A DNA stretch of 64,000 nucleotides, taken from the NCBI GenBank assembly GCA_964545795.1, contig CAZJGC010000002.1, positions 1,929 through 65,928 on the forward strand. The letters run 5' to 3'. Shown one piece after another: positions 1,738 to 57,429 of the stretch. The position numbers and the translations under genes are program-made. Every line of letters starts with the position of its first letter. The first letter of the stretch is position 1. The stretch comes from an uncultured archaeon. Its GTDB lineage: Archaea; Aenigmatarchaeota; Aenigmatarchaeia; Aenigmatarchaeales; DAIDAN01. The notes beneath the pieces are model-generated. The model was not told the DNA's origin, searched no databases, and was given only the letters and a program-made list of their open reading frames with translations.

Positions 1738-2289
1738 ATGAGTAAAGTAATTCATATTGTCACTAGAAATAAAGGTAAAATTATGGCTGCTAAAAATGCT
1801 TTTTCTAAATATAATATTCAAGTAAAATTTATAGATAAAAATTATCCAGAAATTCAAGCAGATAGTAGTGTAGATGTAGCAAAATTTATTGCTATTAAAG
1901 CTTCTAAGGAGTTTAATGTACCTGTAGTCAGAGAGGACCATAGTCTTTTTATAAATGCATTAGGTTTTCCTGGTCCCTATACGAGTTTCATAGAAAAAAG
2001 GCTTTCTGCAGAGAAACTATTAAAGATTTTAGATGCATTAGAAGATAGGAGTGGTTACTTCGAAGTCGCTGCTGTTTATGCAGAACCAAATGGATTTACA
2101 AAAACCTTTGTTTTTAGGGTACCTATTATTTTTTCTAAAGAGATAAGAGGCACACTCTCAGGAGGATGGAACAGAATAATTATGCTCCAAGGTGAGAAAA
2201 GAACTCTGGCAGAATATCCTGAAGAAGAAAGAATCAATATTTGGAATAAAAATTATATTAAAATAGCAAAATATATTTTTAAAAAGTGA
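1738..2289 (+). CDS. Divergent Ham1/ITPase-like non-canonical NTP pyrophosphatase
   Basis: N-terminus KVIHIVTRNKGK..., plus FPGPYTSF and EVAAVYAEPNGF. These show Ham1-fold similarity. It is a paralog of the canonical Ham1 at 35564..36103. Confidence 0.55.
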   Translation: MSKVIHIVTRNKGKIMAAKNAFSKYNIQVKFIDKNYPEIQADSSVDVAKFIAIKASKEFNVPVVREDHSLFINALGFPGPYTSFIEKRLSAEKLLKILDALEDRSGYFEVAAVYAEPNGFTKTFVFRVPIIFSKEIRGTLSGGWNRIIMLQGEKRTLAEYPEEERINIWNKNYIKIAKYIFKK

Positions 2290-2654
2290 ATAAAAAATGA
2301 ATAATATTTCTCACTTATCTATTCCATGTCATTGAAAATTATTTATTTAAATCTAGATAAAGCAATCACTAATATATATGTATGGATATGGAACATTTGA
2401 AATAAATATTAGAGCAGACTCCTCTCCTTCTGAATGTTTTAAAACATTCGATACTAATATAAAAGAGTTGAATTTAAAAGAAAAAAGGTAATATTGGAGG
2501 TTGATTTCGAAAAATTATGTGATATAAACAAAATTGATATAAGAATACCATTATAATAACTTTGTATAATAATAGCCTTGAGGAAATTAATCGCCATTAT
2601 AGTATTAAAGGAGAATTTTATGTAGATAATATATCATATTGTTGATATAAATTG

Positions 2655-2771
2655 GTGCCCCCACCGAGATTTGAAATCCCGCAAAAAACTCGGGTCTTAT
2701 GGTTTTTGCCTTCTGCCCGCAACCATACGTTCTATATGCTCTGTTGTTCCAAGCTATACTATGGGGGCATA
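2655..2771 (-). tRNA. tRNA-like gene with non-canonical insertions; possibly tRNA-Arg(GCG) with multiple introns
   Basis: Minus-strand sequence GCCCCCA-UA-...-UGGGGGC-A-CCA. It has a 7-bp acceptor stem, U8 A9, a TTCAAAT T-loop and an encoded CCA. The length is about 116 nt. The putative anticodon stem is TATGG/CCATA and the putative T stem is CCGAG/CTCGG; each encloses a 20-nt loop, which is 7 plus 13 nt. The D region is 15 nt too long. I could not fold the D arm by eye. Confidence 0.45.
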
Positions 2772-2905
2772 AAAATAATATAATTTGAAAATTTAAAAAT
2801 TAGTGATTTGAGTATGAATAAAAATATCTAACTTTTTCATCTTAACAATAAGTTAACAGAACCCTAAACACAAAGATTTAAATACGTTAATCAGAAATTG
2901 ATTGT

Positions 2906-14477: not shown

Positions 14478-15272
14478 ATGCAGTTAAATTTGTTAATAAG
14501 AAAAATCAAAAATATTGAAATACAGGGCGCAAAAGAAATAGCAATAGAGAGTTTGAAATTTCTTAAAACATTTGCATTAAAAAATGGTTTTGGAAAAAAA
14601 TTTGATGTTGTTTGCAAAGAACTTGAGAGCGCAAGACCTACTGCTGTGGTTCTTCATAATTGTATTGAAATAATAAAGAAGGAAAGGAGTATTGAGGCAA
14701 TAGACAAACTGCTTGAACAACTGCAAACTGACAATATATCAAAGCATGGATTAAAGGTAATCAGAAAGAAATCTGTTATAATGACTCATTGTCATTCTTC
14801 TGAGGCAATATCTCTTATAAAAAAGACAATGCCAAAAAAAGTCTTTGCAACTGAAACAGACCCGAAAGAGCAGGGAGTAAAAACGGCAAAAGAGTTGGCA
14901 AAAGAAAAAGTTTCCGTTGTTTTAATAATAGATTCTGCTTCAGGGTTTTTCATGCCTGAAGTTGATTATGTAATTGTAGGAGCCGATGCAATCAGAAAAG
15001 AAGGTGTTGTAAATAAAATTGGCACATACCCTTTAGGTGCGCTTGCAAAGGAACATAAAAAGCCGTTTTATGTTGTTGCCGATAGTTTAAAAATTGATAC
15101 ACGCAGGAATTTTGTAATAGAAGAACGGCCTGCTGAAGAGGTGCATAAAAAAATAAAGGGGGTAAAAATCAGAAACCCGGCTTTTGATATAACTCCATGG
15201 AAGTTTGTTACAGGCGTTATTATGGAAAGTGGTGTTTTTAAGCCGGTAAAAATAAAGGAGATGATAAAATGA
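14478..15272 (+). CDS. Ribose-1,5-bisphosphate isomerase (eIF-2B alpha/beta/delta family)
   Basis: eIF2B-like fold. It overlaps the rbcL start with ATGA and sits in an operon with RuBisCO and AMP phosphorylase. Confidence 0.7.
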   Translation: MQLNLLIRKIKNIEIQGAKEIAIESLKFLKTFALKNGFGKKFDVVCKELESARPTAVVLHNCIEIIKKERSIEAIDKLLEQLQTDNISKHGLKVIRKKSVIMTHCHSSEAISLIKKTMPKKVFATETDPKEQGVKTAKELAKEKVSVVLIIDSASGFFMPEVDYVIVGADAIRKEGVVNKIGTYPLGALAKEHKKPFYVVADSLKIDTRRNFVIEERPAEEVHKKIKGVKIRNPAFDITPWKFVTGVIMESGVFKPVKIKEMIK

Positions 15273-16486
15273 GATATATTGATTTTGTTGATTTGTCTTA
15301 TAAGCCTAAGAACGATTTAATATGCGATTTTTATCTGGAGGCAAAGGACATAAAAAAATCTGCGGGTGCTGTTGCTGCTGAGTCAAGTATTGGCACATGG
15401 ACAGATGTTTCTACAATAAAGAACTATGTTGAAAGAATGGCTGCAAAAGTTTTTTATATTAAAAAAACAGGAAAGGGCGCGGAAATAAAAATTGCATATC
15501 CAATAGATTTGTTTGAACAGGGAAGTATGCCGAATATTCTTTCTTCTGTAGCAGGAAATGTTTTTGGAATGAAAGAATTAAGGAATTTAAGGCTGAATGA
15601 TATTGTTTTTCCTAAGAAGTTGCTAAAAAGTTTCAAAGGACCAAAATACGGCATAACGGGAATAAGGAAAATTTTCAAAACAAAAAGGCCGTTGGTTGGC
15701 ACAATAATAAAGCCAAAATTAGGGTTAGTGACAAAAGACCATGCTAATGTGGCTTATGAGTCATGGAAAGGAGGCTGTGATATAGTAAAGGATGACGAGA
15801 ATTTAGGCAGCCAGAAGTTTAATTCATTCAGAAAAAGGTTTTTGGAAACAATAAAAATGCGGGATAAAGCAGAAAAAGAAACAGGGGAGAAAAAGATTTA
15901 CATGATAAATATAACTGCGGAAACAGAGGAAATGATTAGACGCGCTGATTTTGTTGCTAATAACGGCGGGGAATATATTATGGTTGATATAATTAGCGCA
16001 GGATGGTCTGCATTGCAGACTTTAAGAAACAAAAATTTTAATCTTGTAATGCATGCTCACAGGGCAGGGCATGCGGCATTTACGAAAAATCCAAAACACG
16101 GGATATCCATGAAAGTCGTATCTAAGATTGTAAGAATAGTTGGCTGCGACCAGCTTCATGTTGGAACCGGGGTAGGAAAAATGTATGAAACAAAAGAAGA
16201 AGTTCTTGAGAATGTTTCTGCATTAAAGGAAGAAAACGGATTAAGAACTGTAATGCCTGTTGCTTCAGGAGGTTTGCATCCGGGACATGTGCCTGCTTTG
16301 CTGAATATTTTTGGAAGTGATGTGGTAATACAGGCTGGCGGAGGAATACATGGAAATCCGTTAGGAACGCAGGCAGGCGCAACTGCTATGAGGCAGGCTG
16401 TTGATGCATGCCTTGAAGGGATTTCTTTGAAAGAATATGCTAAAAACCGCAAGGAGTTGACGGCGGCTTTGAAAAAGTGGAAATGA
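15269..16486 (+). CDS. rbcL: RuBisCO large subunit, archaeal form III
   Basis: IIKPKLGL, GGCDIVKDDENLGSQ, HAHRAGHAA and PVASGGLHPGH motifs. Confidence 0.85.
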   Translation: MRYIDFVDLSYKPKNDLICDFYLEAKDIKKSAGAVAAESSIGTWTDVSTIKNYVERMAAKVFYIKKTGKGAEIKIAYPIDLFEQGSMPNILSSVAGNVFGMKELRNLRLNDIVFPKKLLKSFKGPKYGITGIRKIFKTKRPLVGTIIKPKLGLVTKDHANVAYESWKGGCDIVKDDENLGSQKFNSFRKRFLETIKMRDKAEKETGEKKIYMINITAETEEMIRRADFVANNGGEYIMVDIISAGWSALQTLRNKNFNLVMHAHRAGHAAFTKNPKHGISMKVVSKIVRIVGCDQLHVGTGVGKMYETKEEVLENVSALKEENGLRTVMPVASGGLHPGHVPALLNIFGSDVVIQAGGGIHGNPLGTQAGATAMRQAVDACLEGISLKEYAKNRKELTAALKKWK

Positions 16487-16539
16487 AATTTGGGTTTGCA
16501 AGAAAAATCTTTTAAAGCCGCAAATTAATTAATTGATAG

Positions 16540-16896
16540 GTGGTATCTTTGAAAAACATAAAAATCTCAAAATGGGATGTTTTTGCAGTTCTTGGGTTGG
16601 CGGCATTTATAATTATTATGTCAGTTCTTGTTTATGCTCCAAAAGGCGAATGCGAGGTTGCAAGGCCCGGATACAAGTGCGCATCTGCAAAAAGTGTTAT
16701 GATAGAAAACTGCAATTACTGGGGAAAATATGCATGCAACACATCTGCAGATGTCAGCCTGCCTCAGGTGGAATGGTATATTGGAAATTTGTGCAAAATA
16801 GCAAATGAAAATCATGGGTATGGCTATGAGTGCGCAAATCTAAAACTTGCATGCAATCAGGTAACAGGAAAACAGGTTTGTCCGGTGGGAATATGA
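16540..16896 (+). CDS. Small Cys-rich secreted or membrane-anchored protein of unknown function
   Basis: N-terminal hydrophobic helix AVLGLAAFIIIMSVLVYA followed by 10 Cys. GTG start. The stop overlaps the deoA ATG (ATGA). The alternative frame 16533..16808 is rejected. Confidence 0.5.
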   Translation: MVSLKNIKISKWDVFAVLGLAAFIIIMSVLVYAPKGECEVARPGYKCASAKSVMIENCNYWGKYACNTSADVSLPQVEWYIGNLCKIANENHGYGYECANLKLACNQVTGKQVCPVGI

Positions 16897-18434
16897 AATT
16901 GTCAGCAAAGCCATTAAGTCTTGAAGTTGGAGACAAGAATGTAGTTGTTATTAACAGGAAAGACGCAGATTTTCTTGATTTGCATGCTCTTGAAAGGGTT
17001 AAATTAAAGTTTAAAGGAAATGAAATGGTTGCGATAGTAAATATAACAGACAAGTTTGTTAATGAAGGGGAAATAGCCACAAGCAATGAAATAAATTCTT
17101 TTTTTGGATTAAAAAAAGGAGATAAAATTTCTGTGTCAATAGAGAAAGAGCCTGATTCTGTTATTTTCATAAAACAAAAAATTGCAGGGCATAAGCTCAA
17201 CTATGAACAGATTGAGTCCATTGTCAGGGATGTTGTAAGCAAAAAACTTTCAGGCATAGAAATATCATCATTTTTGACAGCCCTTTATATCCGCGGCATG
17301 AGCAGAGATGAAGTTGAATATTTATCAAGAGCAATGATAAACAATGGAAAAAAACTGAATTTTGGAAATAGCGTTGTTGATAAACATTCTATAGGAGGCG
17401 TGCCCGGAGACAAAACTTCAATAGTTCTGGTTCCTGTGATTGCGTCTGCAGGGCTTATAATACCAAAGACATCTTCGCGGGCGATAACATCTGCAGCAGG
17501 AACAGCAGACAGAATGGAAGTGCTTGCAAACGTTGAGTTTGATTCTAAAGAAATAGTCAGAATTGTCAAAAAAACAAACGGTTGCCTTGTATGGGGAGGC
17601 GCGCTTGACCTTGCTCCTGCTGATGATGAATTTATAGAGGTTGAGTTTCCTCTTGGCATAGACCCGCTTTTACTGCCTTCTATAATGTCAAAGAAGAAGT
17701 CTGTTGGGGCAAAATATGTTGTTATTGACATACCTACAGGCAGCGGCGCAAAGATTAAGACGGTAGATGATGCCAAAATTTTGTCAGAGGAATTCATAGA
17801 GCTTGGCAAGAAATTTAACATGTCAGTTGTTTGCGGCATTACTGTTGGCGAGCAACCTATAGGATATAATATAGGGCCTGCTCTTGAAGCAAAAGAGGCT
17901 CTTGAAACAATAATGGGAAGAGGTCCAAAAGACCTTGTAGAGAAGGTTTCGCAACTTGGAGGCATAATATTTGAAATGACAGGAAAGGGAAATTATGATG
18001 ATGTTCTGAGAATTATAAAAACAGGAAAAGCTGAAAGGAAGTTCAGGCAAATAATTGCTGAGCAGGGAGGGAATCCGAAAATAAAACCTTCTGATATAGT
18101 TATTGGAGACAAAATCTTTGATGTTCGTTCAAGAAGGTCAGGAAAGGTGCTGCAAATAAAAAATATGGAAATAGCAAAAACCGCAAAAATGGCGGGTTCG
18201 CCTAAGGACAAAGGTGCAGGTGTGAGATTGCACAAAAAACTTGGAGATATTGTTAAGAAAGGCGAAAAATTGTTTACAATTTATGCTGAGAATACAATAA
18301 AGCTTAACAGGGCAGTGAAGTTTGCAAGAGAGTATGAACCTGTTGTGGTAGGCAGCTTGCTTAAAGGAAAAATACTTATTGACAGGTTTCCTTCTGATGT
18401 TTTGAATGCAAAAACTGTTTTTCTGGAGAGATAA
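16893..18434 (+). CDS. deoA: AMP phosphorylase (thymidine phosphorylase family)
   Basis: GGVPGDKTSIVLVPVIASAG and an N-terminal extension, as in archaeal AMPpase. The real start is probably the ATG at 16893 (MKLSAKPLSL). Confidence 0.8.
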   Translation: MKLSAKPLSLEVGDKNVVVINRKDADFLDLHALERVKLKFKGNEMVAIVNITDKFVNEGEIATSNEINSFFGLKKGDKISVSIEKEPDSVIFIKQKIAGHKLNYEQIESIVRDVVSKKLSGIEISSFLTALYIRGMSRDEVEYLSRAMINNGKKLNFGNSVVDKHSIGGVPGDKTSIVLVPVIASAGLIIPKTSSRAITSAAGTADRMEVLANVEFDSKEIVRIVKKTNGCLVWGGALDLAPADDEFIEVEFPLGIDPLLLPSIMSKKKSVGAKYVVIDIPTGSGAKIKTVDDAKILSEEFIELGKKFNMSVVCGITVGEQPIGYNIGPALEAKEALETIMGRGPKDLVEKVSQLGGIIFEMTGKGNYDDVLRIIKTGKAERKFRQIIAEQGGNPKIKPSDIVIGDKIFDVRSRRSGKVLQIKNMEIAKTAKMAGSPKDKGAGVRLHKKLGDIVKKGEKLFTIYAENTIKLNRAVKFAREYEPVVVGSLLKGKILIDRFPSDVLNAKTVFLER

Positions 18435-22611: not shown

Positions 22612-24831
22612 ATGGTTTTTGAAACTGAGATAAAGGACGGAATATTGAAAATAAATTGTCTTGGTTCAATATACGGTGCAAGCATAGAAGATTCCGACGT
22701 GCTTATGGCAAGAGTTATAGATAATTTGATTTCTGAGCCTTCTATAAGGGGTATTATTCTTGCAGAATCAAGAGAATATGAATACAACACCCAACAAACA
22801 AAGATGCTTGTAGAAATAGCAAAAGCCATAACAACAATTTTAAGGGAAAGAAGACTTATATCCATAAAAAAGTTCCCTAAGGGTTGCGACAGGCTAATAT
22901 CTGTGTGGTATGGGTGGCTGCAGAATCTTATTACAATACAGTTGCGTTCAGACCCCGTAGGAGCTTATGTGAACCTTATCAGGGAGATAAGACATACAAC
23001 CATAAAGAAGGATAGGTGCAGGGAGGAGTATCTTAAAAATATATTGCTTCCGATAAAAGAGATTCTTGAGCAATGCTCTCTTATACAGTTGGTAAAACCC
23101 CATATAAGCGGTTATAATGTAGGCAACAGGGCAGTTTATAGAGAAATCTTTCATCCTACAATTAGACCCAATTTTATGTATACAAAATACATGGCAACCC
23201 CGCCTCCAGGAGAGGCAATAGAAAGATATGAAATAGGAAATGTTGAAATAAGTATATATAAGGTTCCCGGGCATGTAAGATATTTTTATCATGTTGTGCC
23301 TCCTGAGTTCAATCTTGCTGAAGATGAATATATATTGCTGGATGGCGCGCGCAGGATTTTGGAAGAAAGGCGCCCAAGAGAGTTTGAGACAAAAGACCAG
23401 GAGAAGATGAGAGAAATATTTAACAATATTGGGATTGAACTGCTGAGAGATTTGGCTGAACAAAGCGGAAAAAACTTCACTCCTCTTCAGATAAAAAAAC
23501 TTGCATCAATACTTACAAGGTATACGGCAGGTCTTGGTATATTAGAGATAATTCTTTCTGATGAAAAAATACAGGATGTTTTTGTTAATAGTCCGCTTGG
23601 TGAAATTCCTGTATATGTTTATCATAATGATTACGGCGAGTGCGAAACCAACCTTATACCAACAAGGGTAGATGGTGAAAGATGGGCAACAAGATTCAGG
23701 CTTTTGTCTGGAAGACCATTGGATGAGGCAAATCCTGTTCTGGATACAGAAACAAATGCTCCCGGAGGCAGGGCAAGAGTGTGCGCTATTTATCCCAATC
23801 TATCTCCTGAAGGCATGGGAATTTCATTGAGAAGGCACAGGGACAGACCATGGACTCTTCCGTTGTTTATAAATGTCGGCTTCTTGGACCCTTTGTTTGC
23901 AGGTCTTATAAGTTTTGTAACTGATTATGGAAGAACCTTCCTTATAGCAGGCACGCGTTCTTCAGGAAAAACATCATTGCTTGGGGCATGCATGCTTGAA
24001 ATACTTCCAAAACAAAGAATTGTAACTGTTGAGGATACCTTGGAACTTCCTGTCAAAAAACTGCAAAGTCTTGGTTACAACATTGAAAGATTGAAATCGC
24101 GTTCTGTTATAACAAGGGTTGAAACTGAGATGAGCGCAGATGATGCTATAAGAACTGCTTTGCGTATGGGCGACTCTTCATTGATAATAGGCGAAGTAAG
24201 GTCATTGGAGGCTAAAGCTCTTTATGAAGCAATGAGAATAGGAGCTCTTGCAAATGTTGTAGCAGGCACAATACATGGAGAGTCTGCTTATGGCGTATTT
24301 GACAGAGTTGTTAATGATTTAGGTGTTCCTGCAACAAGTTTTAAGGCGACAGACCTTGTGATAATATGCAATAAGATAAGAAGCGCTGACGGTCTTAAAA
24401 CTTTCAGAAAGGTCACAGAAGTCACAGAAGTCAGAAAACACTGGAAGAATGACCCTGTTGAAGAGGGAGGTTTTGTAAACCTTATGGAATATTCTTCAAA
24501 ATTAGGCATGCTCAAGCCAACTCCAACTTTTTTGAATGGCGAGAGTTTTATGTTGAATGAAATATCAAAACGCGTAAGAGAGTGGTCAGGCAATTGGGCT
24601 GCCGTTTGGGAAAACATAAACTTGCGTGCGAGAATATACAAATCAATAGTTGATATTGCAAAATCAACAAACAAGCCTGAACTTATGGAAGCAGAGAACA
24701 CTGTAAAAAGCAATGAAAAGTTTCATTTGTTGTCTGAGAGGTCCAGAATAGAGACAGGTTTTATTGATGCCGAACTTGTTTATAAAGAGTGGCTTGAGTG
24801 GTTCAAAAAACTTGCAAAAAGTCAGAGATGA
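22612..24831 (+). CDS. Type II/IV secretion-family ATPase (archaeal FlaI/TadA/PilB-like), unusually long at 739 aa
   Basis: Walker A AGTRSSGKTS. VTVEDTLELP matches the VirB11/GspE box. RIGALANVVAGTIHGESA. Confidence 0.8.
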   Translation: MVFETEIKDGILKINCLGSIYGASIEDSDVLMARVIDNLISEPSIRGIILAESREYEYNTQQTKMLVEIAKAITTILRERRLISIKKFPKGCDRLISVWYGWLQNLITIQLRSDPVGAYVNLIREIRHTTIKKDRCREEYLKNILLPIKEILEQCSLIQLVKPHISGYNVGNRAVYREIFHPTIRPNFMYTKYMATPPPGEAIERYEIGNVEISIYKVPGHVRYFYHVVPPEFNLAEDEYILLDGARRILEERRPREFETKDQEKMREIFNNIGIELLRDLAEQSGKNFTPLQIKKLASILTRYTAGLGILEIILSDEKIQDVFVNSPLGEIPVYVYHNDYGECETNLIPTRVDGERWATRFRLLSGRPLDEANPVLDTETNAPGGRARVCAIYPNLSPEGMGISLRRHRDRPWTLPLFINVGFLDPLFAGLISFVTDYGRTFLIAGTRSSGKTSLLGACMLEILPKQRIVTVEDTLELPVKKLQSLGYNIERLKSRSVITRVETEMSADDAIRTALRMGDSSLIIGEVRSLEAKALYEAMRIGALANVVAGTIHGESAYGVFDRVVNDLGVPATSFKATDLVIICNKIRSADGLKTFRKVTEVTEVRKHWKNDPVEEGGFVNLMEYSSKLGMLKPTPTFLNGESFMLNEISKRVREWSGNWAAVWENINLRARIYKSIVDIAKSTNKPELMEAENTVKSNEKFHLLSERSRIETGFIDAELVYKEWLEWFKKLAKSQR

Positions 24832-26927: not shown

Positions 26928-28559
26928 TTAAATCTGCTTTAAGACATAATTTTCTCCTGCAGTGAAGTTTGTTTTAAAGTATAGATTTTCAAAATCGGTT
27001 GTTCCTTTCTTTACAATTTTTATGGTGTTGTCAGTTAATTTTATTACTGCTTCAAAATCAGATATTGTAAATTTGTAGTTTCCTGTATAGGAGCAAGACC
27101 ATGATTCAGATGTTGAATATCTTTTGCTGTGCGAATATGCGTCACAGTCGCGGTAACATTTGAATAGAGTGCAGACAAGTTCCCATGAGCAGCAACTTCC
27201 TGTTCTGCAGCTTCCGCTTCTGCTGCATGAATATTTGTATTCATAATAATTTTTCTTTCCCCAATTATATGTGTTGTGATATTTTTTGTGAGAATAACTG
27301 TAACCGCTTATTCCGCATCCGCATGAGCCTGAATATGACAAGTCCTCGTAATTATATGCGCATGTTCCTGATATTTTATTGCCTGTTCTTAGATAATGGC
27401 TGCCTGCACAACCATTGTAAAAATTCTTTGGAGTCTTGTAATCATATAATTGCCATGTTTTTGAGAAAGATGGATTAATTTCTATGCTGATATCAATGCC
27501 ATTCAGATATTCATTAGTGAAAACAGATTTCAATGATGATATAATGTTGTTGATTTTTGAATCCAATCTTATCCAGTCAGTGTCTTTAACTGCTTTCTGC
27601 GCTGTGCAGCTCACTGTTTTTCTTCCTTCTGAGCAGTCGCTGCTTCCAGAGTATGATTGGGTTTCGGTGTATGTTCCTTGAAAGTCATTTATGCCTGCCA
27701 AGCCTTCACTGCTTCCAATTCCGCATAGAAGAGAATATCTGAACATATTGTCTATGCGCACATGAATTCTGCCTCCGGAGACAAAACCTGCATACTTTCC
27801 CGGGTTTTTGCTGTTGGTTATTCCTTCACATTCTGTCTTTAAACTGTTAACTTCATTCACGTTAAAATTAATGTTTTTTATTTTGCAGCCATCCACGCCT
27901 GATGATGAGAGCAAAGAGTTTGAAATATGCTTTTCGGCATTTCCATCATTGTCGCAGTCAAAATCTCCAGAGTTTACGTAAATTTTGTTAGAATCCCGGA
28001 CATATGTTCCGTTGGCATAGAACCTTCTTGAGAGTTTTGCAATTTTTAGATATCTTATTGGTTTTTTTATTTCCACTGTTCCTTTAAGATATGACTTTAT
28101 AATAGATTTTTTTCTTTCAAATGAAAAGGATTGCGGCTTCATTGTTGTAGTTATTATATAATCAGAAACAATTGTGTTTATATTGGAAGGAGGAGTAACT
28201 TTTATTCTTCCCCCGTTGCCTATAAATTCAGGATAGCTTGTTATTTTTCCTTTAAGTGTTTCTTTAAATTTGTTTTTAATTTCTTCTATGCTTGGCAGAT
28301 TTGCATGCCAGTTGCATTCAAAACCTCCGCACTTTTCTCCCAATTCCTTTGCGGTAATTTCAGTTACTATCTTAAGAAATTCATTCATATTTTTTTCTGA
28401 TAGATAATAGTAGTTTATTGTGGATAAACCGCCTGCAATTCTGTCAGACAATTTCATTTCTGTGCTGCTGTAAAAATTATGAAGGAAGATAAGGATAAAA
28501 CCTATTATTATTGCGCCTATCAAAACGCCTACTGTAATAATCGGAGCAACACCTTTCAT
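26928..28559 (-). CDS. Large Cys/Tyr/Ser-rich surface protein with a prepilin-like N-terminus
   Basis: MKG|VAPIITVGVLIGAIIIGFILIF. 543 aa. C-terminal CxC/CGC clusters. Confidence 0.5.
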   Translation of the reverse strand: MKGVAPIITVGVLIGAIIIGFILIFLHNFYSSTEMKLSDRIAGGLSTINYYYLSEKNMNEFLKIVTEITAKELGEKCGGFECNWHANLPSIEEIKNKFKETLKGKITSYPEFIGNGGRIKVTPPSNINTIVSDYIITTTMKPQSFSFERKKSIIKSYLKGTVEIKKPIRYLKIAKLSRRFYANGTYVRDSNKIYVNSGDFDCDNDGNAEKHISNSLLSSSGVDGCKIKNINFNVNEVNSLKTECEGITNSKNPGKYAGFVSGGRIHVRIDNMFRYSLLCGIGSSEGLAGINDFQGTYTETQSYSGSSDCSEGRKTVSCTAQKAVKDTDWIRLDSKINNIISSLKSVFTNEYLNGIDISIEINPSFSKTWQLYDYKTPKNFYNGCAGSHYLRTGNKISGTCAYNYEDLSYSGSCGCGISGYSYSHKKYHNTYNWGKKNYYEYKYSCSRSGSCRTGSCCSWELVCTLFKCYRDCDAYSHSKRYSTSESWSCSYTGNYKFTISDFEAVIKLTDNTIKIVKKGTTDFENLYFKTNFTAGENYVLKQI

Positions 28560-28563
28560 GAAA

Positions 28564-29055
28564 TCACGCTACGTACAATACAAGCCAATACTTTCCGGGA
28601 AGCACTGGTATTGAATCTCTCATGCCATAAGGCACTTTGTTAAAGTCTTTGTCTTCGCTGTTTTTTGCAAGGGTTTTTATGTCAGGCCCATAAAGGAACA
28701 GCCAGTATTTTTTTCCTTTATAAACATAGTCAATATATTTTTTTGCAACTGCTTTCAAGTCATAATCGCACAGGTCATCGGCGCAACCTGATTTTGGAAC
28801 TTTGGGTTTCAATGTGTCTTCATACAAGGCATATACAAGCGCTCTTTTGAATGTTATGCCATTGCTGTCTTTCATCTCCATCAGAGATAAAAGCGCATCC
28901 TGAACAGACACAGGTTCATATATTATATCAACTATTAGTTTTTTGGTTATTTTGACATTCAAAATATGACCTGCTCCTATGACAGCGGCAAAAAAAGCAG
29001 CTACAACAATAATGACAATGAGTGTGATTACCGAAATAACTATGGCTTTTTTCAT
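28564..29055 (-). CDS. Pilin-like protein
   Basis: MKKA|IVISVITLIVIIVVAAFFAAV N-terminus. Confidence 0.45.
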   Translation of the reverse strand: MKKAIVISVITLIVIIVVAAFFAAVIGAGHILNVKITKKLIVDIIYEPVSVQDALLSLMEMKDSNGITFKRALVYALYEDTLKPKVPKSGCADDLCDYDLKAVAKKYIDYVYKGKKYWLFLYGPDIKTLAKNSEDKDFNKVPYGMRDSIPVLPGKYWLVLYVA

Positions 29056-29057
29056 GT

Positions 29058-29999
29058 TCATGCGCACCCTGCTTCTATTATTGCTTTCTTTCCTATTATG
29101 TTCTTTGCAGTTATTTTTATGTTGTTTACAGTAATGGTTTTGCCTTTTTCAATTTCATGGTATTTGTCTATGCCTTCCATAACAGTTTCGCCGTTTTCCC
29201 TTACTTCAATCAGCACTGAAATATCGCTTGAAGCATTGTAAAATACTTCATAGTTTTTTGAGTTGCATGTTCCTGAAAAAACGGTGTCTCCGTATGACAG
29301 CCTTTTGCCCAGCACAAGGCAGCAGTCTATGTCTGGTTTGCAGCCGTTGCTTCCGCACTTTGGATTGCAGACGTCATCCTGCTTGCATATTTCAGTGCAT
29401 GAGTAGGCTGGTCTGCAGTAGTCTCCGTTCCATTTGCACCCCATTTTTTCGCATTCCTCTTTTTTAATGCAATTGTAACAATCCGCTCCTTTGTAACCAT
29501 AGCCGCAGTTGCCGGAAGGAGCATATTTTATTACCAGTTTTGCAGGTTCTGTTGAGCCGTCTTCCATTCTAACCAGAGCAGGAAATTCATATTCCGGAGA
29601 ATCAGCTTTTACTGCAGGAGGTATTCTGCCTGTCCTCATGTTCTTTACTCCAAAGTCCCATGATTTATCCTGCGTGGATATTGTGATTACAGAAGCAAGC
29701 AATGAGTCAATGCAGGAGATTCTGTCAAGCTCATTTACAGTGTTTCCATATTTTGCATAACATTCCTGCTGTTTCAGTTTTGTTTCATTAAAAACTCCTT
29801 TCATGTCTGCAAGGCATGGTGCCGAGAGCAGATTTTCTCCAAGGTCTATTGCGAGCCTTTCTTTGCTGTTTTCTCTTATATCTGCTTTGAATTGCGTAAG
29901 AGAAAGTATTCCGAATGCTATAAAGCCAACAAGAATAGCCAATACAGTTATTTTTATAAACATCTCGCTTATTTCCATTTGTCCTTTCAATAATTTCAC
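29058..29999 (-). CDS. Cys-rich pilin-like protein with a KGQ prepilin motif
   Basis: MKLLKGQMEISEMFIKITVLAILVGF resembles the archaeal class III signal peptide, KGQxSxEF. More than 20 Cys. The C-terminal domain is homologous to that of 31270..32799. Confidence 0.55.
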   Translation of the reverse strand: MKLLKGQMEISEMFIKITVLAILVGFIAFGILSLTQFKADIRENSKERLAIDLGENLLSAPCLADMKGVFNETKLKQQECYAKYGNTVNELDRISCIDSLLASVITISTQDKSWDFGVKNMRTGRIPPAVKADSPEYEFPALVRMEDGSTEPAKLVIKYAPSGNCGYGYKGADCYNCIKKEECEKMGCKWNGDYCRPAYSCTEICKQDDVCNPKCGSNGCKPDIDCCLVLGKRLSYGDTVFSGTCNSKNYEVFYNASSDISVLIEVRENGETVMEGIDKYHEIEKGKTITVNNIKITAKNIIGKKAIIEAGCA

Positions 30000-30434
30000 C
30001 TATTTATTCAAACCTATTTTTGTCTTTATGGCTGATTCTACCGTTACATTGTTTATATGGGTTTCAGAGAACATGCAATAGTCATTGACGCAGTCTCCTG
30101 TTATATCCTTTAAATAAACATATGGCAGCGGCGATTTCTGTTCAAACATCAGGTTTGCCCTTTTTGTCAGCTTTCCCACTATTATGTTTATTACAGGATT
30201 TTCTTCAAATACTTTCATGTTATGCGTTACTTTGGGAAAAAATTCAAGAGCATAAAAGTCAGGAGCAAAATTGCTCATTGAAAGCATGCCTGACATATAT
30301 TCCTGCATAATTCTTGCATCTGCATAAGCAAAATATTCCATTAACATAAGTCCTGTTTGAGTTACAAGATAAAAAAATAAAACAAGTATAATTATATCTC
30401 CTGCAAAAATAACAAGGTCGTATATTTCAGACAT
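30000..30434 (-). CDS. Membrane protein, hypothetical
   Basis: N-terminal TM segment DIIILVLFFYLVTQTGLML. Confidence 0.4.
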   Translation of the reverse strand: MSEIYDLVIFAGDIIILVLFFYLVTQTGLMLMEYFAYADARIMQEYMSGMLSMSNFAPDFYALEFFPKVTHNMKVFEENPVINIIVGKLTKRANLMFEQKSPLPYVYLKDITGDCVNDYCMFSETHINNVTVESAIKTKIGLNK

Positions 30435-30548
30435 AATTTCACCTGCTGCCTAAAGCAGTTTAAGCCACATAACAAGACCAAGCACTATTATAATAAATAC
30501 AATTATTCCAACTAACCACAGCAGTTCATCATCTAACATGCAAATCAA

Positions 30549-30806
30549 CTAACAAAATCCGCTTCTCCTGCATATTTTCCTACAATTGTCTGCGTTAGAG
30601 CAGCCGATTTTTTCCATAATGCTGTTTGTAAGTTTCGAGTCTTTGCATCCGTCAATATTCCATTTGCTGCAGGCTGCTGTTCTGTCGGCAAGGCTGCCTG
30701 TGTCTTTAACATTGTTGTTTATTGGATTTATTATGCCAATCAACAATGCAACAAACACTATTAGTGCTATTAAAATTAAAACCAAAAACCTTGCTGAAAG
30801 TTCCAT
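30549..30806 (-). CDS. Small Cys-rich pilin-like protein
   Basis: MELSARFLVLILIALIVFVALLIGI plus 6 Cys. Confidence 0.4.
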   Translation of the reverse strand: MELSARFLVLILIALIVFVALLIGIINPINNNVKDTGSLADRTAACSKWNIDGCKDSKLTNSIMEKIGCSNADNCRKICRRSGFC

Positions 30807-31000
30807 ATTGAAAATTATTTTCTTTTTCTTATAAGTTTAATGCAGAATAAGATTTATGAAGTTGTTTATGTAGTATGAAAGCATTGAAGTCATTTTTCCT
30901 GTTCCGGGAGTGATTATAATCACAATAACTGATATAAGAAAGAAAATGATAAGAACAAGGATAATAATATCTTTAAGCGAACTCACAGGCAGGCTTATTC

Positions 31001-31279
31001 TCATATACAGACACCTATGCTCTTATCGCACTTATTTCTGCATTGTTCATCAATAAAGCATAAACATTGCCCGTTTTTGCAAATGCCGTTTCCAGCGCAA
31101 TCAGAATTTTCTGAACATCCTGCCCTGAACTTAAAGGATTCCTCTGACATTTTTTCTATTGAGCTTGGCTCTTCTTCAGAACCAATAAAAATAGGCGAAT
31201 AAATTCCAGCCAGAACAACTATTGCAACAATTATTGTTATGGCTAACATAAGCATAGACCATGTGACTTTCATTTGCAA
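31001..31279 (-). CDS. Small Cys-rich pilin-like protein
   Basis: TM helix, then a GCSENSDCAGNGICKNGQCLC knot-like domain. Confidence 0.4.
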   Translation of the reverse strand: MQMKVTWSMLMLAITIIVAIVVLAGIYSPIFIGSEEEPSSIEKMSEESFKFRAGCSENSDCAGNGICKNGQCLCFIDEQCRNKCDKSIGVCI

Positions 31280-32799
31280 CTCACTCCTATAAGTGCTTTT
31301 CTATTATTGTAATCTATGTCTTTTACTGATATTTTTATGCTGTCAAATGTTTCTGTTTTCCCTTTGTCAACTATTTTGTTTTTGTATTTTTCTGCATTGT
31401 CTTCAAATACTGTCACTATGATGTTTTCTTGAACAACACCCGAGAGGAATACTTTATAGTATTTTTTATCTGAACATGTCCCTGAAAATATTGGCACGTC
31501 ATTGCTGACATGATATTCGCTTACAGAATAGCTGGTTTTGCATGATGTCCATTCATCTTCCTTTGCGTCCCTGCAGTCAAGATTAAATGTTCCTGCACCT
31601 CCTGCGTAAGATAAACTTATATCAAATGTTTTTGCTTTCCAGCAGAAATTGTCAAATTTAAATTCACATGTTTCCATGTTGTCAATATTGCCGCAATTTA
31701 CACTGGAAGTTTCTTTATCAAGGTCGCAATCTCTGTCCGGATTAGTAACTGCCACAGTTATTTTCGCATTTTCTATTTTTTTATTTGCATAATTATTGAG
31801 TTTGAACTCAAGGCTTGTGTCTTTATCAACAATGCCTTTGTATTTTATTTTTGCGCCTGAAATGTAAATTCCTTCTCCATATTCAATTACCCATTTGTAA
31901 TTTTTGCATTTAAGTTGTAAGTGGTTTTTATCTGTAATCGTCACACCTTCATTCTCTTCATTGCATACAAGCCATTTTGCTTCATTGGACCAGCCCTTTC
32001 CAGATTGTTCATAGCCGCAGGCAATATCATACTTTAACTTGTATACATGAGTGCCTCCTATTGTTGTGTCCAGCAATGGACAGCAGTCTTTTTTATCGTT
32101 TACTTTTGGGCAGTATTCTTTGAAATCAGAGCATTTGTCTGTCACAGAATCTGTGAAAACCTGCGTTAATATTTTGTCAGAGGATTTTTTATCGCAGCTA
32201 AAACCGTATCTGCGTTTGCACAGAACCCATGGCGCAATCTTGCATTCAGTAGCGCATATAGAATATTCTGACCTTCCCATGTCCTTGCATTTTACTTCTT
32301 CGCATCCCCTGTCAAAAGTTATAAAGTCCTTGATTTTGCTGTTAGAAACACCGCTTAATATAATGCTTCCCGGAATAACATAATGTATATAATCTTTGTC
32401 AAGCGGCTTATTTCTTATTAATCCTTCTTTCGTGGCTTCTGACGTGAATAATACGCACCTATCAGATCTGAATTTTTTTATTGAAAAGAACTGGTTTATT
32501 CTTTCTCCGGAATCTTCAACGTAGTCAGACAAGTGCTCGTTTCCATAAGTTCCTTCGTCTGTTGGGTGAAATTCAAATATGCTAACTGGTGTTGTGTCTG
32601 TATCAATTTTTACATGCAGTGCTTTATGCCCCGCGCTTATGCTAATTTCCTTTGAACTTACTCCTTTAAGGATATCAAATATGTTTCCCAAACCTTTTTT
32701 GGATTCATTTCCGTGAGAAACGAAAATAAACCCAAGCACTGCAAGCGCTAAAAAGGCTATTATAATAATAACCAGCGTGTTTGTTGGAAGAGGGTCCAT
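31270..32799 (-). CDS. Large Cys-rich surface protein
   Basis: The N-terminus MDPLPTNTLVIIIIAFLALAV is similar to ELPINTLVVVAIAV of the pilin at 34114. The C-terminal domain is shared with 29058..29999. Confidence 0.5.
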   Translation of the reverse strand: MDPLPTNTLVIIIIAFLALAVLGFIFVSHGNESKKGLGNIFDILKGVSSKEISISAGHKALHVKIDTDTTPVSIFEFHPTDEGTYGNEHLSDYVEDSGERINQFFSIKKFRSDRCVLFTSEATKEGLIRNKPLDKDYIHYVIPGSIILSGVSNSKIKDFITFDRGCEEVKCKDMGRSEYSICATECKIAPWVLCKRRYGFSCDKKSSDKILTQVFTDSVTDKCSDFKEYCPKVNDKKDCCPLLDTTIGGTHVYKLKYDIACGYEQSGKGWSNEAKWLVCNEENEGVTITDKNHLQLKCKNYKWVIEYGEGIYISGAKIKYKGIVDKDTSLEFKLNNYANKKIENAKITVAVTNPDRDCDLDKETSSVNCGNIDNMETCEFKFDNFCWKAKTFDISLSYAGGAGTFNLDCRDAKEDEWTSCKTSYSVSEYHVSNDVPIFSGTCSDKKYYKVFLSGVVQENIIVTVFEDNAEKYKNKIVDKGKTETFDSIKISVKDIDYNNRKALIGVSCK

Positions 32800-32812
32800 T
32801 TAATTTCACCTT

Positions 32813-33562
32813 TTAACCCGTGGTTTTGAATTCATGAATTTTTACTTTAATCACAGGTTTGCCTTTTAAAGGCAAAATACTGTCATCAGGATTATACATA
32901 ATTTCAACAGTATAATCTTTTCCCATTTCCATTTTGCCTTTCCATTTTATCCTGTCGTCTTTTTCCGGGGTGCCTTTGCATCTGTCATAACATTTTTTCC
33001 CTTTGCTTATATCATCATCACTGCTTCCGCAGTCTGAATTTCCCCATTCTCCTTCTTTTGTTTCAGAACCGCAAAGCCTGTTTTGGGCAAGCAGTCCCCA
33101 TATTGTGGTTGTCCATTCGTCCACTACCTTTGTCTTGTCTGTTCCTATGCTCTTTGCATTGCAGTAATCGTCTTTTATTATGCTTAAATCTGCCTGCGTC
33201 TTTGAGGCGTCTGTGCAGTCAAGTTGTTTTGCAATTTTTATTGGGTGGTCAACAAAAAAGTTTGAAAACAACGCGGTTTCCGATTTGCATCTCTTATAAC
33301 ATATTTTCCATGCATACTCAATTGCTTCCCCAATAAGCGCTGATGCTTCATAAGAATCAAAACCATCTTCTGCGTAACTGTTGTAACTGTTTTCAAGATT
33401 GTTTAAATAATTATCCTGCTCGTATTTTGTTGTGTATTTTGTCCAGTCATTTGTTATTGATTCTGTTGAATTTTTGAAAATATTTGTGATTCCAAGGTAT
33501 ATAACCAGCATTAAAATGGCTAAGACAATTATTATAATCGTGCTCATTGTCATTGATTTCAT
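32813..33562 (-). CDS. Cys-rich pilin-like or surface protein
   Basis: The likely start is MKSMTMSTIIIIVLAILMLVIY, not the track start at 33625. Confidence 0.45.
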   Translation of the reverse strand: MKSMTMSTIIIIVLAILMLVIYLGITNIFKNSTESITNDWTKYTTKYEQDNYLNNLENSYNSYAEDGFDSYEASALIGEAIEYAWKICYKRCKSETALFSNFFVDHPIKIAKQLDCTDASKTQADLSIIKDDYCNAKSIGTDKTKVVDEWTTTIWGLLAQNRLCGSETKEGEWGNSDCGSSDDDISKGKKCYDRCKGTPEKDDRIKWKGKMEMGKDYTVEIMYNPDDSILPLKGKPVIKVKIHEFKTTG

Positions 33563-33563
33563 T

Positions 33564-33743
33564 CTAACACCAAAACTTAGCAAGCCATCCTGCTTTTTCG
33601 CATACCATTTTCTTTGCAAATGCATCTATTGTATTTAGTTGGTCAGGAGCGCTTAAAAAGGAAACTATAAAAAATATTATTGCTGCAAGAATAGCCACAA
33701 GTATAAGGGCAACTATTGGGTTAATTACTATATCTCCTTTCAT
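33564..33743 (-). CDS. Small prepilin-like protein (59 aa)
   Basis: Manual translation: MKG|DIVINPIVALILVAILAAIIFFIVSF... Its stop is 1 nt from the next gene's start. Confidence 0.35.
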   Translation of the reverse strand: MKGDIVINPIVALILVAILAAIIFFIVSFLSAPDQLNTIDAFAKKMVCEKAGWLAKFWC

Positions 33744-34113
33744 GAATTCACCATTTCAAAAATATTTTCTTTATTATTGTGAACATATCAGGAACATTCA
33801 AAAATATTGAAGCAACTGCTGTTATTATTGTTAATAAAATTACGAAAAAGATAGCAGCAATAATAATGCTTTTTATGTTTGAAAATACTAATCTCATCCT
33901 ATCAGCACCTTAAACAATCCATGTGATTGGGTATAAAAATATAAAACGCTTATAAGTATGAGTATTCCTGCCAAAGCCAGTGCAAAATACATAATGGTTT
34001 TTATTAATTCTTCGTCCATATTCTTAGTTTGCAAAGTTCTTATTTATAATTGCCGTTATCTTTATATATAATGCTTTTTATTAATTTTTTAATTAATTTT
34101 GGGTGAGATTTCA

Positions 34114-34638
34114 ATGAAAAGGCAAAAAGGAATTGAGCTTCCGATAAATACGCTTGTTGTTGTTGCCATAGCTGTTATAATTCTTCTTGCTGTTGCTGCA
34201 TTCTTTATGGGTGTATGGACTCCAAGCGCAGGAGGAATGCAGGCTCTGGCAGCCAAAAACCGCGCATGCGGTCAGTTAATGAACATTGGTTGTAACGATG
34301 CTACTGAATCCGATATGAGGAGCATAAATTTTGATTTTGATTATGATAACTCTGGCACTACGGCTGATGATAATCTTTACGGCTATTGTAAATATAGTTA
34401 TCCTTCCCTGAGCGGCGGAGAACTTCTAAAGAGTTGCAAAAAGATGTGCGGTTGTCCCGGATATTCTGGTATAGGCACAAGCAGCGGAATTAATACAGGA
34501 GGAGGTTCTGCCGGAGGTTCCGGTTCTGGAGGCTCTGGGACAGGTTCAGGCGGCAGTTCCGGTTCAGGCAGCGGTTCCGGAACAGGAGGCGGAGTATCCG
34601 GAATAAATCTTCCGAATCCTATGCAAGGCGGCAGGTGA
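34114..34638 (+). CDS. Archaeal type IV pilin-like protein with a Gly/Ser-rich C-terminal tail
   Basis: MKRQKG|IELPINTLVVVAIAVIILLAVAAF class-III-like signal. The track start is a TTG about 15 nt upstream. Confidence 0.55.
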   Translation: MKRQKGIELPINTLVVVAIAVIILLAVAAFFMGVWTPSAGGMQALAAKNRACGQLMNIGCNDATESDMRSINFDFDYDNSGTTADDNLYGYCKYSYPSLSGGELLKSCKKMCGCPGYSGIGTSSGINTGGGSAGGSGSGGSGTGSGGSSGSGSGSGTGGGVSGINLPNPMQGGR

Positions 34639-34645
34639 TAAAATA

Positions 34646-35557
34646 ATGAAAATACTTTTGCCTTTTGTTGCGGTTTTGGGTTTAATATTTGTTTTTAGTG
34701 TTTTTGCTGTTGCATTAGATTGCCCACAGACATCATGTTATAATTATATTTCTGGCGGAAAGTTCTTTTCTTTTAAACTTTCAAATTTCAAGGCTAAACA
34801 ATTTTTTTCATGTGATAAAGATTTATGGGGTTCTTCAGAGGTAAAAGGACTTATTAGAGTATGTTGTTATCAAAAGTATGAATTCTGTAAGTATGGTTGC
34901 AAAGATGGTCAATGCCTGCCAAACCCTGAAGTAAAGAATGAAGAATTAGATAGTTATTTGAGTATGCCAGAATTCTCAACTATAAAAGTTTCCGGGAAAA
35001 AAGTAGAATTAAAGTTAAAAGCCGGTGCTAATCTTGTTGGAGGATTTAAGTTTGATATTAATACATTTAAGAACAATGACTGTGAATTGTTGTATTTTAA
35101 TGGTTTTTCTGATACAAAAAACCCTTTTGTATATTATACTCAAGGAGAGTTTAGAAAGACAAATAGTGTTGGCAGAACTTTAAGTACTCTTGGATACTGG
35201 ATACCTCTTAAAAAAGATTGCACAATAACAGTTGATTTGGAGGTTTGGGGTCAAATAAATCTTAAAAGGACTAACGAGAACAAGAATGGTGAAGCGCAGT
35301 TAATATCAGTTCCGTTTGATGTTACAAAGGCGGAATTAGAGAAAGCTGGCTGTAAATTTACTAGATTTAATAAATATTCAACAACTGACAAACCTTTTGT
35401 GTATTGGGACACAACTACTGAAAATGGAGAATTTAAATCCACAGATACGCTCAAAGCTGATGGCAGGGGTTATTGGATTCCTCTTTTAAAAGGCTGCACT
35501 CTGAAAGCAGGGATTGTGTACGCTAACGAAGGAGATGTTAATCAGCCATCAAAATAA
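34646..35557 (+). CDS. Secreted protein with an internal ~100-aa duplication
   Basis: Signal peptide MKILLPFVAVLGLIFVFSVFA. Repeats: KNPFVYYTQGEFRKTNSVGRTLSTLGYWIPLKKDCT and DKPFVYWDTTTENGEFKSTDTLKADGRGYWIPLLKGCT. Confidence 0.5.
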   Translation: MKILLPFVAVLGLIFVFSVFAVALDCPQTSCYNYISGGKFFSFKLSNFKAKQFFSCDKDLWGSSEVKGLIRVCCYQKYEFCKYGCKDGQCLPNPEVKNEELDSYLSMPEFSTIKVSGKKVELKLKAGANLVGGFKFDINTFKNNDCELLYFNGFSDTKNPFVYYTQGEFRKTNSVGRTLSTLGYWIPLKKDCTITVDLEVWGQINLKRTNENKNGEAQLISVPFDVTKAELEKAGCKFTRFNKYSTTDKPFVYWDTTTENGEFKSTDTLKADGRGYWIPLLKGCTLKAGIVYANEGDVNQPSK

Positions 35558-35563
35558 TTAATA

Positions 35564-36103
35564 ATGACTTTGTATTTTATTACAGGGAACAAAAGCAAGT
35601 TTGAGGAAGCCAGCGCAATTCTCCCTGGTATCAGGCAGTTTAATGTTGAATTGCCTGAAATCCAGAGTATTAATGCAAGAGAAATTGTTAAAACAAAACT
35701 TCTTGAAGCAATGAACCATAAAAAAGCTGAATTTATTGTTGAAGACACTTCTCTTTATCTTGATTGCCTTAATGGTTTGCCAGGCCCTTTAATAAAATGG
35801 TTTATGAAAACTATTGGAAATGAGGGGCTATTTAATATAGTTGAAAAGTTTGGAAATCCAAATGCAGAAGCAAAAACTGTTATTGGATATGCAAAAAACC
35901 CTAAGGAGGTTTATTATTTTGAGGGCTCAATCAAGGGGAGAATAGTGTCGCCGAAAGGCAGGTCTGGTTTTGGCTGGGACCCTGTCTTTCAGCCAGAGGG
36001 CTGTTCAAAAACATTTGCTGAAATTACTCAGGAAGAAAAGAACAAAATAAGCATGAGAAGAATTGCGCTTAACAAATTAAAAGAATTTTTAGAATCGTTT
36101 TAA
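35564..36103 (+). CDS. Ham1/RdgB dITP/XTP pyrophosphatase
   Basis: LYFITGNKSKFEEA, FIVEDTSL and GFGWDPVFQP motifs. Confidence 0.8.
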   Translation: MTLYFITGNKSKFEEASAILPGIRQFNVELPEIQSINAREIVKTKLLEAMNHKKAEFIVEDTSLYLDCLNGLPGPLIKWFMKTIGNEGLFNIVEKFGNPNAEAKTVIGYAKNPKEVYYFEGSIKGRIVSPKGRSGFGWDPVFQPEGCSKTFAEITQEEKNKISMRRIALNKLKEFLESF

Positions 36104-49018: not shown

Positions 49019-49165
49019 ATGCCAAGTAAAAGCGTTACATTAAAAGTTGATTCTGAGTTATATGACAAATATAGAGAGTATTGTAAAAAGAAAGGTTTAA
49101 TTATTTCAAGACAATTTGAAATTTTTATTGAGAATGAATTAAAAAAGAGGTCACAAAATGAATAA
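49019..49165 (+). CDS. Ribbon-helix-helix (CopG/antitoxin-like) small protein
   Basis: Manual translation: MPSKSVTLKVDSELYDKYREYCKKKGLIISRQFEIFIENELKKRSQNE. The beta-strand then two helices fit the RHH pattern. Its stop overlaps the next gene's ATG. Confidence 0.5.
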   Translation: MPSKSVTLKVDSELYDKYREYCKKKGLIISRQFEIFIENELKKRSQNE

Positions 49166-56696: not shown

Positions 56697-56928
56697 TTAT
56701 TAATATCCTCGCCAAAGGCGAGACAATCTGTGCCGAAGGCACTCCCGCGACCCATTTTTATTTCACTTAACACCCATTACCCTTACTTTTTATTTGCATA
56801 ATCCCAAAAAAGATAAACCGAGATTTTTATAAAGTCGCTTTTGATTCTCTTTTATTTTTTATTGCGCCAACAAAGTTAAGAAAGCCATATGCGATAAGTT
56901 TAAATATTATACTTTTTTATTAGTTTCT

Positions 56929-57383: not shown

Positions 57384-57429
57384 TTTCTTTTTGCGCCCAA
57401 TATTTATATTTTCAAAACAAACTATTATT

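Follow-up and report, generated by a model that had tools for sequence, protein, structure and literature searches.

A tRNA-Arg(GCG) gene with three probable 13-nt introns in a genome fragment of a likely DPANN archaeon

Results

Locus and genomic setting

The window, by which we mean the whole 64,000-nt stretch of DNA analysed here, carries on its minus strand a pre-tRNA-Arg(GCG) gene of 116 nt, GCCCCCAUAGUAUAGCUUGGAACAACAGAGCAUAUAGAACGUAUGGUUGCGGGCAGAAGGCAAAAACCAUAAGACCCGAGUUUUUUGCGGGAUUUCAAAUCUCGGUGGGGGCACCA (direct read), in which four exons are separated by three insertions of 13 nt (Table 1). The two ends form a perfect 7-bp acceptor stem (GCCCCCA/UGGGGGC), U8-A9 and the T-loop UUCAAAU are present, and the discriminator A at 2656 is followed by an encoded CCA at 2655-2653. 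In the unspliced gene two 5-bp stems, UAUGG/CCAUA and CCGAG/CUCGG, enclose exactly 20 nt each. A preliminary description of this DNA had named all these elements, and our reading of the sequence agrees with it on each of them, as well as on the strand and on a length of about 116 nt; its limits, 2655-2771, have to be corrected to 2653-2768.

The exons are colinear on one strand within the 116 nt, which rules out a split or permuted tRNA gene; a group I self-splicing intron is likewise ruled out by the insertion size of 13 nt and the absence of any Rfam intron match. No ORF of at least 60 aa overlaps the gene. In a separate Logan assembly, that of run SRR9849955, a segment of 4845 bp that includes the tRNA gene is identical (0 mismatches), so that the three insertions are not an artefact of one assembly. 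A TATA-box-like element upstream is a possible archaeal promoter, a weak candidate because the flank is very A+T-rich.

Table 1. Positions of the tRNA gene, its parts, its interrupted homologues and other features of the window. Numbering is that of the window unless another sequence is named.
Feature	Position	Strand	Remarks
TATA-box-like element TTTTTAAAT	2791..2799	-	23-31 nt upstream of the first tRNA base (sequence read)
Pre-tRNA-Arg(GCG) gene	2653..2768	-	116 nt
Exon 1	2749..2768	-	Acceptor 5' strand, U8 A9, D-stem 5' strand GUAU, D-loop to G18 G19
Intron 1, AACAACAGAGCAU	2736..2748	-	D-loop, between G19 and A20; 13 nt
Exon 2	2717..2735	-	A20 to G37: remaining D-loop, D-stem 3' strand GAAC, G26, anticodon-stem 5' strand UAUGG, loop UUGCGG; anticodon GCG at 2720-2718
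Intron 2, GCAGAAGGCAAAA	2704..2716	-	Canonical 37/38 site; 13 nt
Exon 3	2689..2703	-	A38, anticodon-stem 3' strand CCAUA, variable loop AGAC, T-stem 5' strand CCGAG
Intron 3, UUUUUUGCGGGAU	2676..2688	-	53/54; 13 nt
Exon 4	2653..2675	-	T-loop UUCAAAU, T-stem 3' strand CUCGG, acceptor 3' strand UGGGGGC, ACCA
Ham1-like gene	1738-2289	+	Beside the tRNA gene
IF-2B-family (ribose-1,5-bisphosphate isomerase-like), form III RuBisCO and AMP-phosphorylase-like genes	14478-18434	+	Consecutive
T2SSE-type ATPase domain gene	22612-24831		Adjoins the following ORF run upstream
Run of seven ORFs	26928-35557	both	Consecutive
Second Ham1/ITPase-like gene	35564-36103	+
UPF0175/HTH and DUF3368 (PIN-like) ORFs	49158-50290	+	Adjacent
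DNA methylase gene	51373-53871		Downstream of the preceding pair
ResIII helicase-like gene	53868-56654		Downstream of the same pair
Two hairpins	56700-56760		Intergenic, G+C-rich
Primase gene	57334-58701	+	Small- and large-subunit domains fused in one 455-aa ORF
Tes (tetraether lipid synthase-like radical SAM), FEN1, HMG-CoA reductase, HMG-CoA synthase, thiolase genes	within the window		Pfam/gene content
Pyruvate:ferredoxin oxidoreductase subunit and aRF1 genes	within the window		Gene content
PheRS alpha and beta, class I Trp/Tyr-type aminoacyl-tRNA synthetase genes	within the window		Gene content
Interrupted tRNA-Arg(GCG) homologue, Micrarchaeota-type	L003, 4807-5062	+
Interrupted tRNA-Arg(GCG) homologue, Micrarchaeota-type	L007, 990-1103	+
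Interrupted tRNA-Arg(GCG) homologue, Micrarchaeota-type	L008, from 3025	-

The host genome fragment has about 35% G+C, and its gene content is archaeal: it encodes the Tes lipid synthase, FEN1, enzymes of the mevalonate pathway, form III RuBisCO, aRF1 and a fused primase, and three consecutive genes form an archaeal AMP salvage module. For two window proteins, the best homologues are 66-77% identical, and those that bear a name come mostly from Aenigmatarchaeota, with some from Micrarchaeota and Nanoarchaeota. Gene content and homologues thus bear out the archaeal setting suggested at the outset and point to a DPANN host close to Aenigmatarchaeota or Micrarchaeota, a placement that stops short of a single phylum. 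Among 533 arginine codons counted in 27 Pfam-supported ORFs, 51 are CGU or CGC; because these codons, though rare, do occur, an arginine tRNA with G34 is needed. A Pfam search of the 45 larger ORFs returned no EndA or ligase gene in the 64-kb window, with five ORFs of at least 150 aa falling outside that scan.

The tRNA gene lies between a Ham1-like gene and the aEF-1beta gene, and there is no integrase or recombinase near it. Of the two Ham1/ITPase-like genes in the window, the one beside the tRNA gene scores 73 bits in Pfam and has its best named homologues in Patescibacteria (55-60% identity), so it may have been transferred from CPR bacteria to a DPANN archaeon; the other scores 156 bits.

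Several other features of the window deserve mention in their own right. A T2SSE-type ATPase domain gene adjoins an unbroken run of seven ORFs (167-543 aa, from both strands), none of which has a Pfam match. The adjacent UPF0175/HTH and DUF3368 ORFs, each of 190 aa, are a probable toxin-antitoxin pair, and the methylase and helicase-like genes downstream of them are likely a restriction-modification or defence island. Beyond these, an intergenic G+C-rich segment contains the hairpins CTCGCC-AAA-GGCGAG and GTGCC-GAA-GGCAC, which match no Rfam family.

Standard tRNA finders

ARAGORN at default settings reported no tRNA in the whole 64-kb window, and with introns allowed it made no call on the unspliced gene. 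Rfam gave no match in the window at gathering thresholds, nor at E<=10, whether the search was local or window-wide. These failures are explained by the insertions, which break the cloverleaf. We also scanned both strands of the window for a T-loop combined with a 7-bp acceptor pairing: among eight matches, only the tRNA-Arg locus was G+C-rich and tRNA-like. Four GC-rich intergenic islands, read for further disrupted tRNAs, contained nothing tRNA-like.

The outcome changes when the insertions are taken out. The form lacking all three is called tRNA-Arg(gcg), 77 nt, by ARAGORN at default settings, and the form in which intron 2 alone is kept is called Arg(gcg) with a 13-nt intron at the same site when the intron option is set; every other partial removal yields no call. 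The use of ARAGORN as a check, which the preliminary description had suggested, thus gave nothing on the gene as it stands and the expected tRNA once the introns were removed. Such a call says little when taken by itself, since the program accepted 453 of 1184 alternative single-deletion variants, and the case rests on colinearity with an intron-free homologue. Two opposite-strand calls made at the 80% threshold were rejected as structurally poor.

The predicted spliced product and its intron-free homologue

Removal of the three insertions in silico gives GCCCCCAUAGUAUAGCUUGGAUAGAACGUAUGGUUGCGGACCAUAAGACCCGAGUUCAAAUCUCGGUGGGGGCA plus CCA, that is, a tRNA-Arg(GCG) of 74 nt (+CCA). All its stems are intact, the sole mismatch being A12·A23 in the D-stem. 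The conserved positions U8, A14, G15, G18, G19, A21, U33, G37, C48, G53, U54, U55, C56, A58 and C61 are all in place, and the tertiary-contact nucleotides include G15-C48, G26-A44, G53-C61 and U54-A58. The anticodon GCG stands in the 7-nt loop UUGCGGA, with U33 and a purine at 37. A20, the first base after intron 1, and C35, which we take to be ArgRS identity elements, are both present.

Homologues were sought in genome and metagenome collections by means of an exact 20-mer, the first 20 nt of the gene. Exact matches fell in tRNA-Arg genes from two metagenome contigs and from four GTDB genomes, three of them Micrarchaeota and the fourth an unclassified archaeon. One of the matching genes, L006, from another DPANN genome, is an intron-free tRNA-Arg(GCG) that obtains 52 bits on the Rfam tRNA model, against a gathering score of 29, and is called Arg(gcg) by ARAGORN. 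Our spliced product is identical to it at 62 of 74 positions, with no gap. The D-loop AGCUUGGAUA, the anticodon loop and the T-loop are the same in both, the variable loops are equally long, and the A12·A23 mismatch is common to the two; the differences are paired changes in the anticodon and T stems. The original proposal of a tRNA with introns is thereby upheld and made specific: what the removal restores is a tRNA-Arg(GCG) colinear with L006.

When the unspliced gene is aligned to L006 on sequence alone, the first insertion falls at precursor positions 21-33 (or, equivalently, 22-34). In the anticodon and T regions the likeness between intron 3 (GCGGGAU) and the T-stem of the homologue led the same alignment astray, and the placement of insertions 2 and 3 is decided by structure.

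Predicted splice-site motifs

The junctions were placed with the bulge-helix-bulge (BHB) rule, under which the cut follows the second base of each 3-nt bulge, and the 4 exon bases that immediately precede the first bulge pair with the 4 intron bases that immediately precede the second. Repeated bases at the junctions leave 2, 1 and 3 cut registers for introns 1, 2 and 3, respectively, all giving the same product. Only one of the equivalent registers of each intron has a 4/4 helix, the losing ones reaching 1/4 for intron 1 and 1/4 and 0/4 for intron 3. The central helices are GCUU/GAGC for intron 1 (intron GAGC with exon GCUU, nt 15-17a), UUGC/GCAA for intron 2 (intron GCAA with U32-C35) and CCCG/CGGG for intron 3 (intron CGGG with exon C48-G51). 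In each case the paired intron bases are positions 8-11, and their exon partners lie 2 nt upstream of the 5' junction. The introns have this architecture in common and no common sequence.

All three sites are of the relaxed hBH (BHL) form of the BHB motif. The inner helix amounts to 0 bp at the D intron, one C-G pair at the anticodon intron and one U·G pair at the T intron, and with so little pairing the 5' site comes to lie in a 9-nt loop closed by the central helix. There the 5' cut falls 2 nt into the loop, while the 3' cut falls 2 nt into a 3-nt bulge (AUA, AAA and AUU for introns 1, 2 and 3). The outer helix has 2, 5 and 2 bp at the D, anticodon and T introns, respectively, that of the anticodon intron being the anticodon stem itself. 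We rejected the strict hBHBh' form, the substrate of alpha4 and alpha'2 endonucleases, which has two 3-nt bulges and helices of at least 2 bp, h' included.

How often would such helices arise by chance? At a fixed 13-nt register, a 4/4 helix has a base rate of 0.019-0.025 per position in the window, and it occurs in 0.012-0.045 of intron shuffles. The joint chance of three such helices, with six register combinations allowed for, is then roughly 6 x 0.022^3, or about 6e-5. By contrast, triplets of BHL-like motifs within 120 nt are found about 15 times in the window by chance, so that a mere count of motifs is no evidence.

These results refine what had been proposed from the two 20-nt loops and the overlong D region. 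The search for BHB motifs at the predicted junctions, named in the preliminary description as a further check, found a 4/4 central helix at all three. The 13-nt insertions expected in the anticodon loop and the T region are both supported, with helices in register, although the latter, first assigned to the T-loop, sits at the 53/54 stem/loop junction. An intron in the D region was also correctly anticipated and is located between G19 and A20; the excess there, estimated at 15 nt, proves to be one 13-nt insertion plus a normal D-loop of 10 nt.

Interrupted homologues as a control

The homologues with insertions allow the splice-site rule to be tried on independent genes. Compared with L006, L007 has one insertion of 40 nt in the alignment (L008 is a near-identical copy), and L003 has two, of 99 and 83 nt. 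ARAGORN and Rfam missed these interrupted homologues, and removal of the insertions restored Arg(gcg) in both L007 and L003. On L007 the register rule selected one of six registers, with the helix UUCA/UGAA, at position 59/60. The 83-nt insertion of L003 has the same helix and the same position, and its 99-nt intron lies at 37/38. The rule thus picks a published site, 59/60, and behaves correctly on independent introns of a known type.

Introns at 19/20 or 53/54 occur in none of L003, L006, L007 and L008. The differing sites among these homologues indicate that intron positions turn over between lineages. Exact 20-mer scans found no close relative with the same three introns, only Micrarchaeota-like homologues with other ones, so that the splice-site helices stand without covariation support. 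L002, related through the Tes gene, has no tRNA at the matching place by synteny. Another tRNA-Arg homologue, in L005 (minus strand from 6366), has the anticodon CCG and no matching 3' end within 260 nt; such a copy could be a split gene or contain very long introns.

Folding of the precursor

The three motifs do not overlap and can coexist, with an energy of -21.6 kcal/mol as written and of -32.6 kcal/mol if only the central helices are enforced. The minimum free energy (MFE) of the precursor is -36.6 kcal/mol, and the BHB conformer is not the minimum. In the MFE structure intron 2 pairs with intron 3 instead: 9 bp, four of them G·U, join GCAGAAGGC, the first nine bases of intron 2, to GUUUUUUGC, in which G53 of exon 3 is followed by eight bases from the start of intron 3 (minus strand, window 2716-2704 and 2689-2681). 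The heptamer UUGCGGG is found both at the anticodon loop and within intron 3; this repeat and the pairing could be chance events. Folding also has the T-site motif and the T-stem competing at nearly equal energy. MFE folding returned no cloverleaf for the spliced form, nor for the bona fide tRNA L006; it is therefore uninformative here and weighs little either way.

Discussion

Our preferred explanation, to which we give a probability of roughly 85%, is that in a DPANN archaeon this locus functions as a tRNA-Arg(GCG) gene with three introns, at 19/20, 37/38 and 53/54. Transcription of the minus strand would yield a precursor of about 116 nt containing the three 13-nt introns, which would adopt three non-overlapping hBH motifs. 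The archaeal tRNA splicing endonuclease (EndA) would then cut all six junctions, and a ligase of the RtcB type would join the four exons. The predicted outcome is a 74-nt tRNA, its CCA already encoded, that would read the rare arginine codons CGU and CGC.

The chief alternative is that the locus is a tRNA pseudogene in decay, or an integration remnant, from which the three insertions are never removed. The Patescibacteria homologues of the adjoining Ham1-like gene do hint at foreign DNA, and the BHB conformer is not the MFE structure. However, the stems are perfect except for A12·A23, a mismatch also found in a functional-looking homologue, and none of the conserved tertiary nucleotides has been lost. 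The joint chance that three insertions would all measure exactly 13 nt and have 4/4 helices in register is about 6e-5, as estimated above. Nor does the neighbourhood favour integration: integrase and recombinase genes are absent nearby, and neither ARAGORN nor our own scan of the window revealed a further tRNA, whatever its kind. We tend to discard this alternative, which the preliminary description had kept in reserve, and regard it as unlikely.

Even less probable, in our opinion, is that the insertions are retained in an unspliced, expanded tRNA-like RNA with a non-translational or regulatory role. In such a molecule G19 would be parted from A20 and G53 from U54, which would break the D-loop/T-loop contacts that are, to our knowledge, required by every elongator tRNA. 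Moreover, the unspliced form matches no Rfam family, while the product of excision is almost identical to a normal tRNA-Arg. Finally, other exon-intron layouts have next to no chance of being right: the reading as tRNA-Tyr(AUA), with one intron of 41 nt in the anticodon loop and a T-arm CGGGA/UCUCG, which ARAGORN returns with introns allowed at an 80% threshold, appears only below the normal threshold of that program. To fold in this way, the RNA would have to add an eighth acceptor pair (U·G), move its T-loop by one base to UUUCAAA, and make do with a D-stem of 2 bp and an anticodon stem rich in G·U pairs. This reading also gives up the perfect UAUGG/CCAUA and CCGAG/CUCGG stems, and it is colinear with no homologue.

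If the gene is indeed a functional three-intron tRNA-Arg(GCG) gene, it predicts a splicing endonuclease of relaxed specificity in the host. A broader and more tentative idea, which we would not bet on though it is far from negligible, is that the lineage has a genome-wide set of uniform 13-nt BHL mini-introns, the D-loop 19/20 site included, handled by such an endonuclease. If true, it would account both for the failure of standard tools to find a tRNA in 64 kb and for the frequent apparent lack of tRNAs in DPANN genomes. Since ARAGORN and Rfam miss the gene, estimates of tRNA counts, completeness and codon capacity for such genomes would be too low without an intron-aware archaeal search.

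Comparison with known systems

A full-text literature search found no report specific to tRNA introns of Aenigmatarchaeota. Archaeal tRNA genes with multiple, non-canonical introns have a maximum of three per gene and are most abundant in Thermoproteales (PMC4033280, PMC8450103), and 53/54 is a listed non-canonical archaeal site (PMC4090602). Disrupted genes that escape detection have been put forward as the reason why tRNA sets of DPANN genomes are incomplete, and DPANN lineages with loop-bearing alpha4 endonucleases show more tRNA gene disruption (PMC5829648). The prediction of a relaxed endonuclease bears on the proposal that endonuclease type and the disruption of tRNA genes evolved together.

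The three-intron genes of Thermoproteales such as Pyrobaculum calidifontis (Sugahara et al. 2008), as far as the articles citing them describe them (PMC4033280, PMC8450103), resemble ours in having three BHB-type introns in one gene, at the canonical 37/38 site plus non-canonical ones. By the same accounts, their hosts are TACK-group Crenarchaeota with (alpha-beta)2 endonucleases, whereas ours is placed in DPANN, and sequence similarity among many of their introns has been interpreted as transposition, whereas the introns of the window gene are unrelated in sequence. A eukaryotic nuclear three-intron tRNA gene likewise has one intron in each of three arms and a BHB-guided choice of sites; it differs by its eukaryotic endonuclease and by a sequence unrelated to the window gene.

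Closer to our gene are its Micrarchaeota-type homologues L003 and L007/L008, together with the intron-free L006, all with the same first 20 nt, the same loops and a mature length of 74 nt. They differ in their introns: L006 has none, L007/L008 have one at 59/60 and L003 has two, at 37/38 and 59/60, against 19/20, 37/38 and 53/54 in the window gene.

The closest published parallel is ARMAN-2, in which a 13-nt hBH intron at 59/60 is cut in vitro by the epsilon2 endonuclease, and tRNA-Pro has introns at 53/54 and 59/60 (PMC3239211). The likeness extends to a DPANN host, the intron size of 13 nt, the hBH form, in which a loop holds the 5' site and a 3-nt bulge the 3' site, as well as to the use of position 53/54, with in vitro cleavage belonging to the ARMAN-2 intron only. 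In contrast, the window gene has three 13-nt introns in one gene, one of them at G19/A20, and the proteins of its host are nearer to named Aenigmatarchaeota than to ARMAN-2. It would thus represent, in a DPANN archaeon outside the well-studied ARMAN-2 group, a single tRNA with three introns of the minimal 13 nt each. The gene reveals no new mechanism and would not surprise a specialist: it fits the known picture, in which multi-intron genes, the 53/54 site and the 13-nt hBH intron are all already published, and is notable for joining the maximum number of introns to their minimal size and for the D-loop site at G19/A20.
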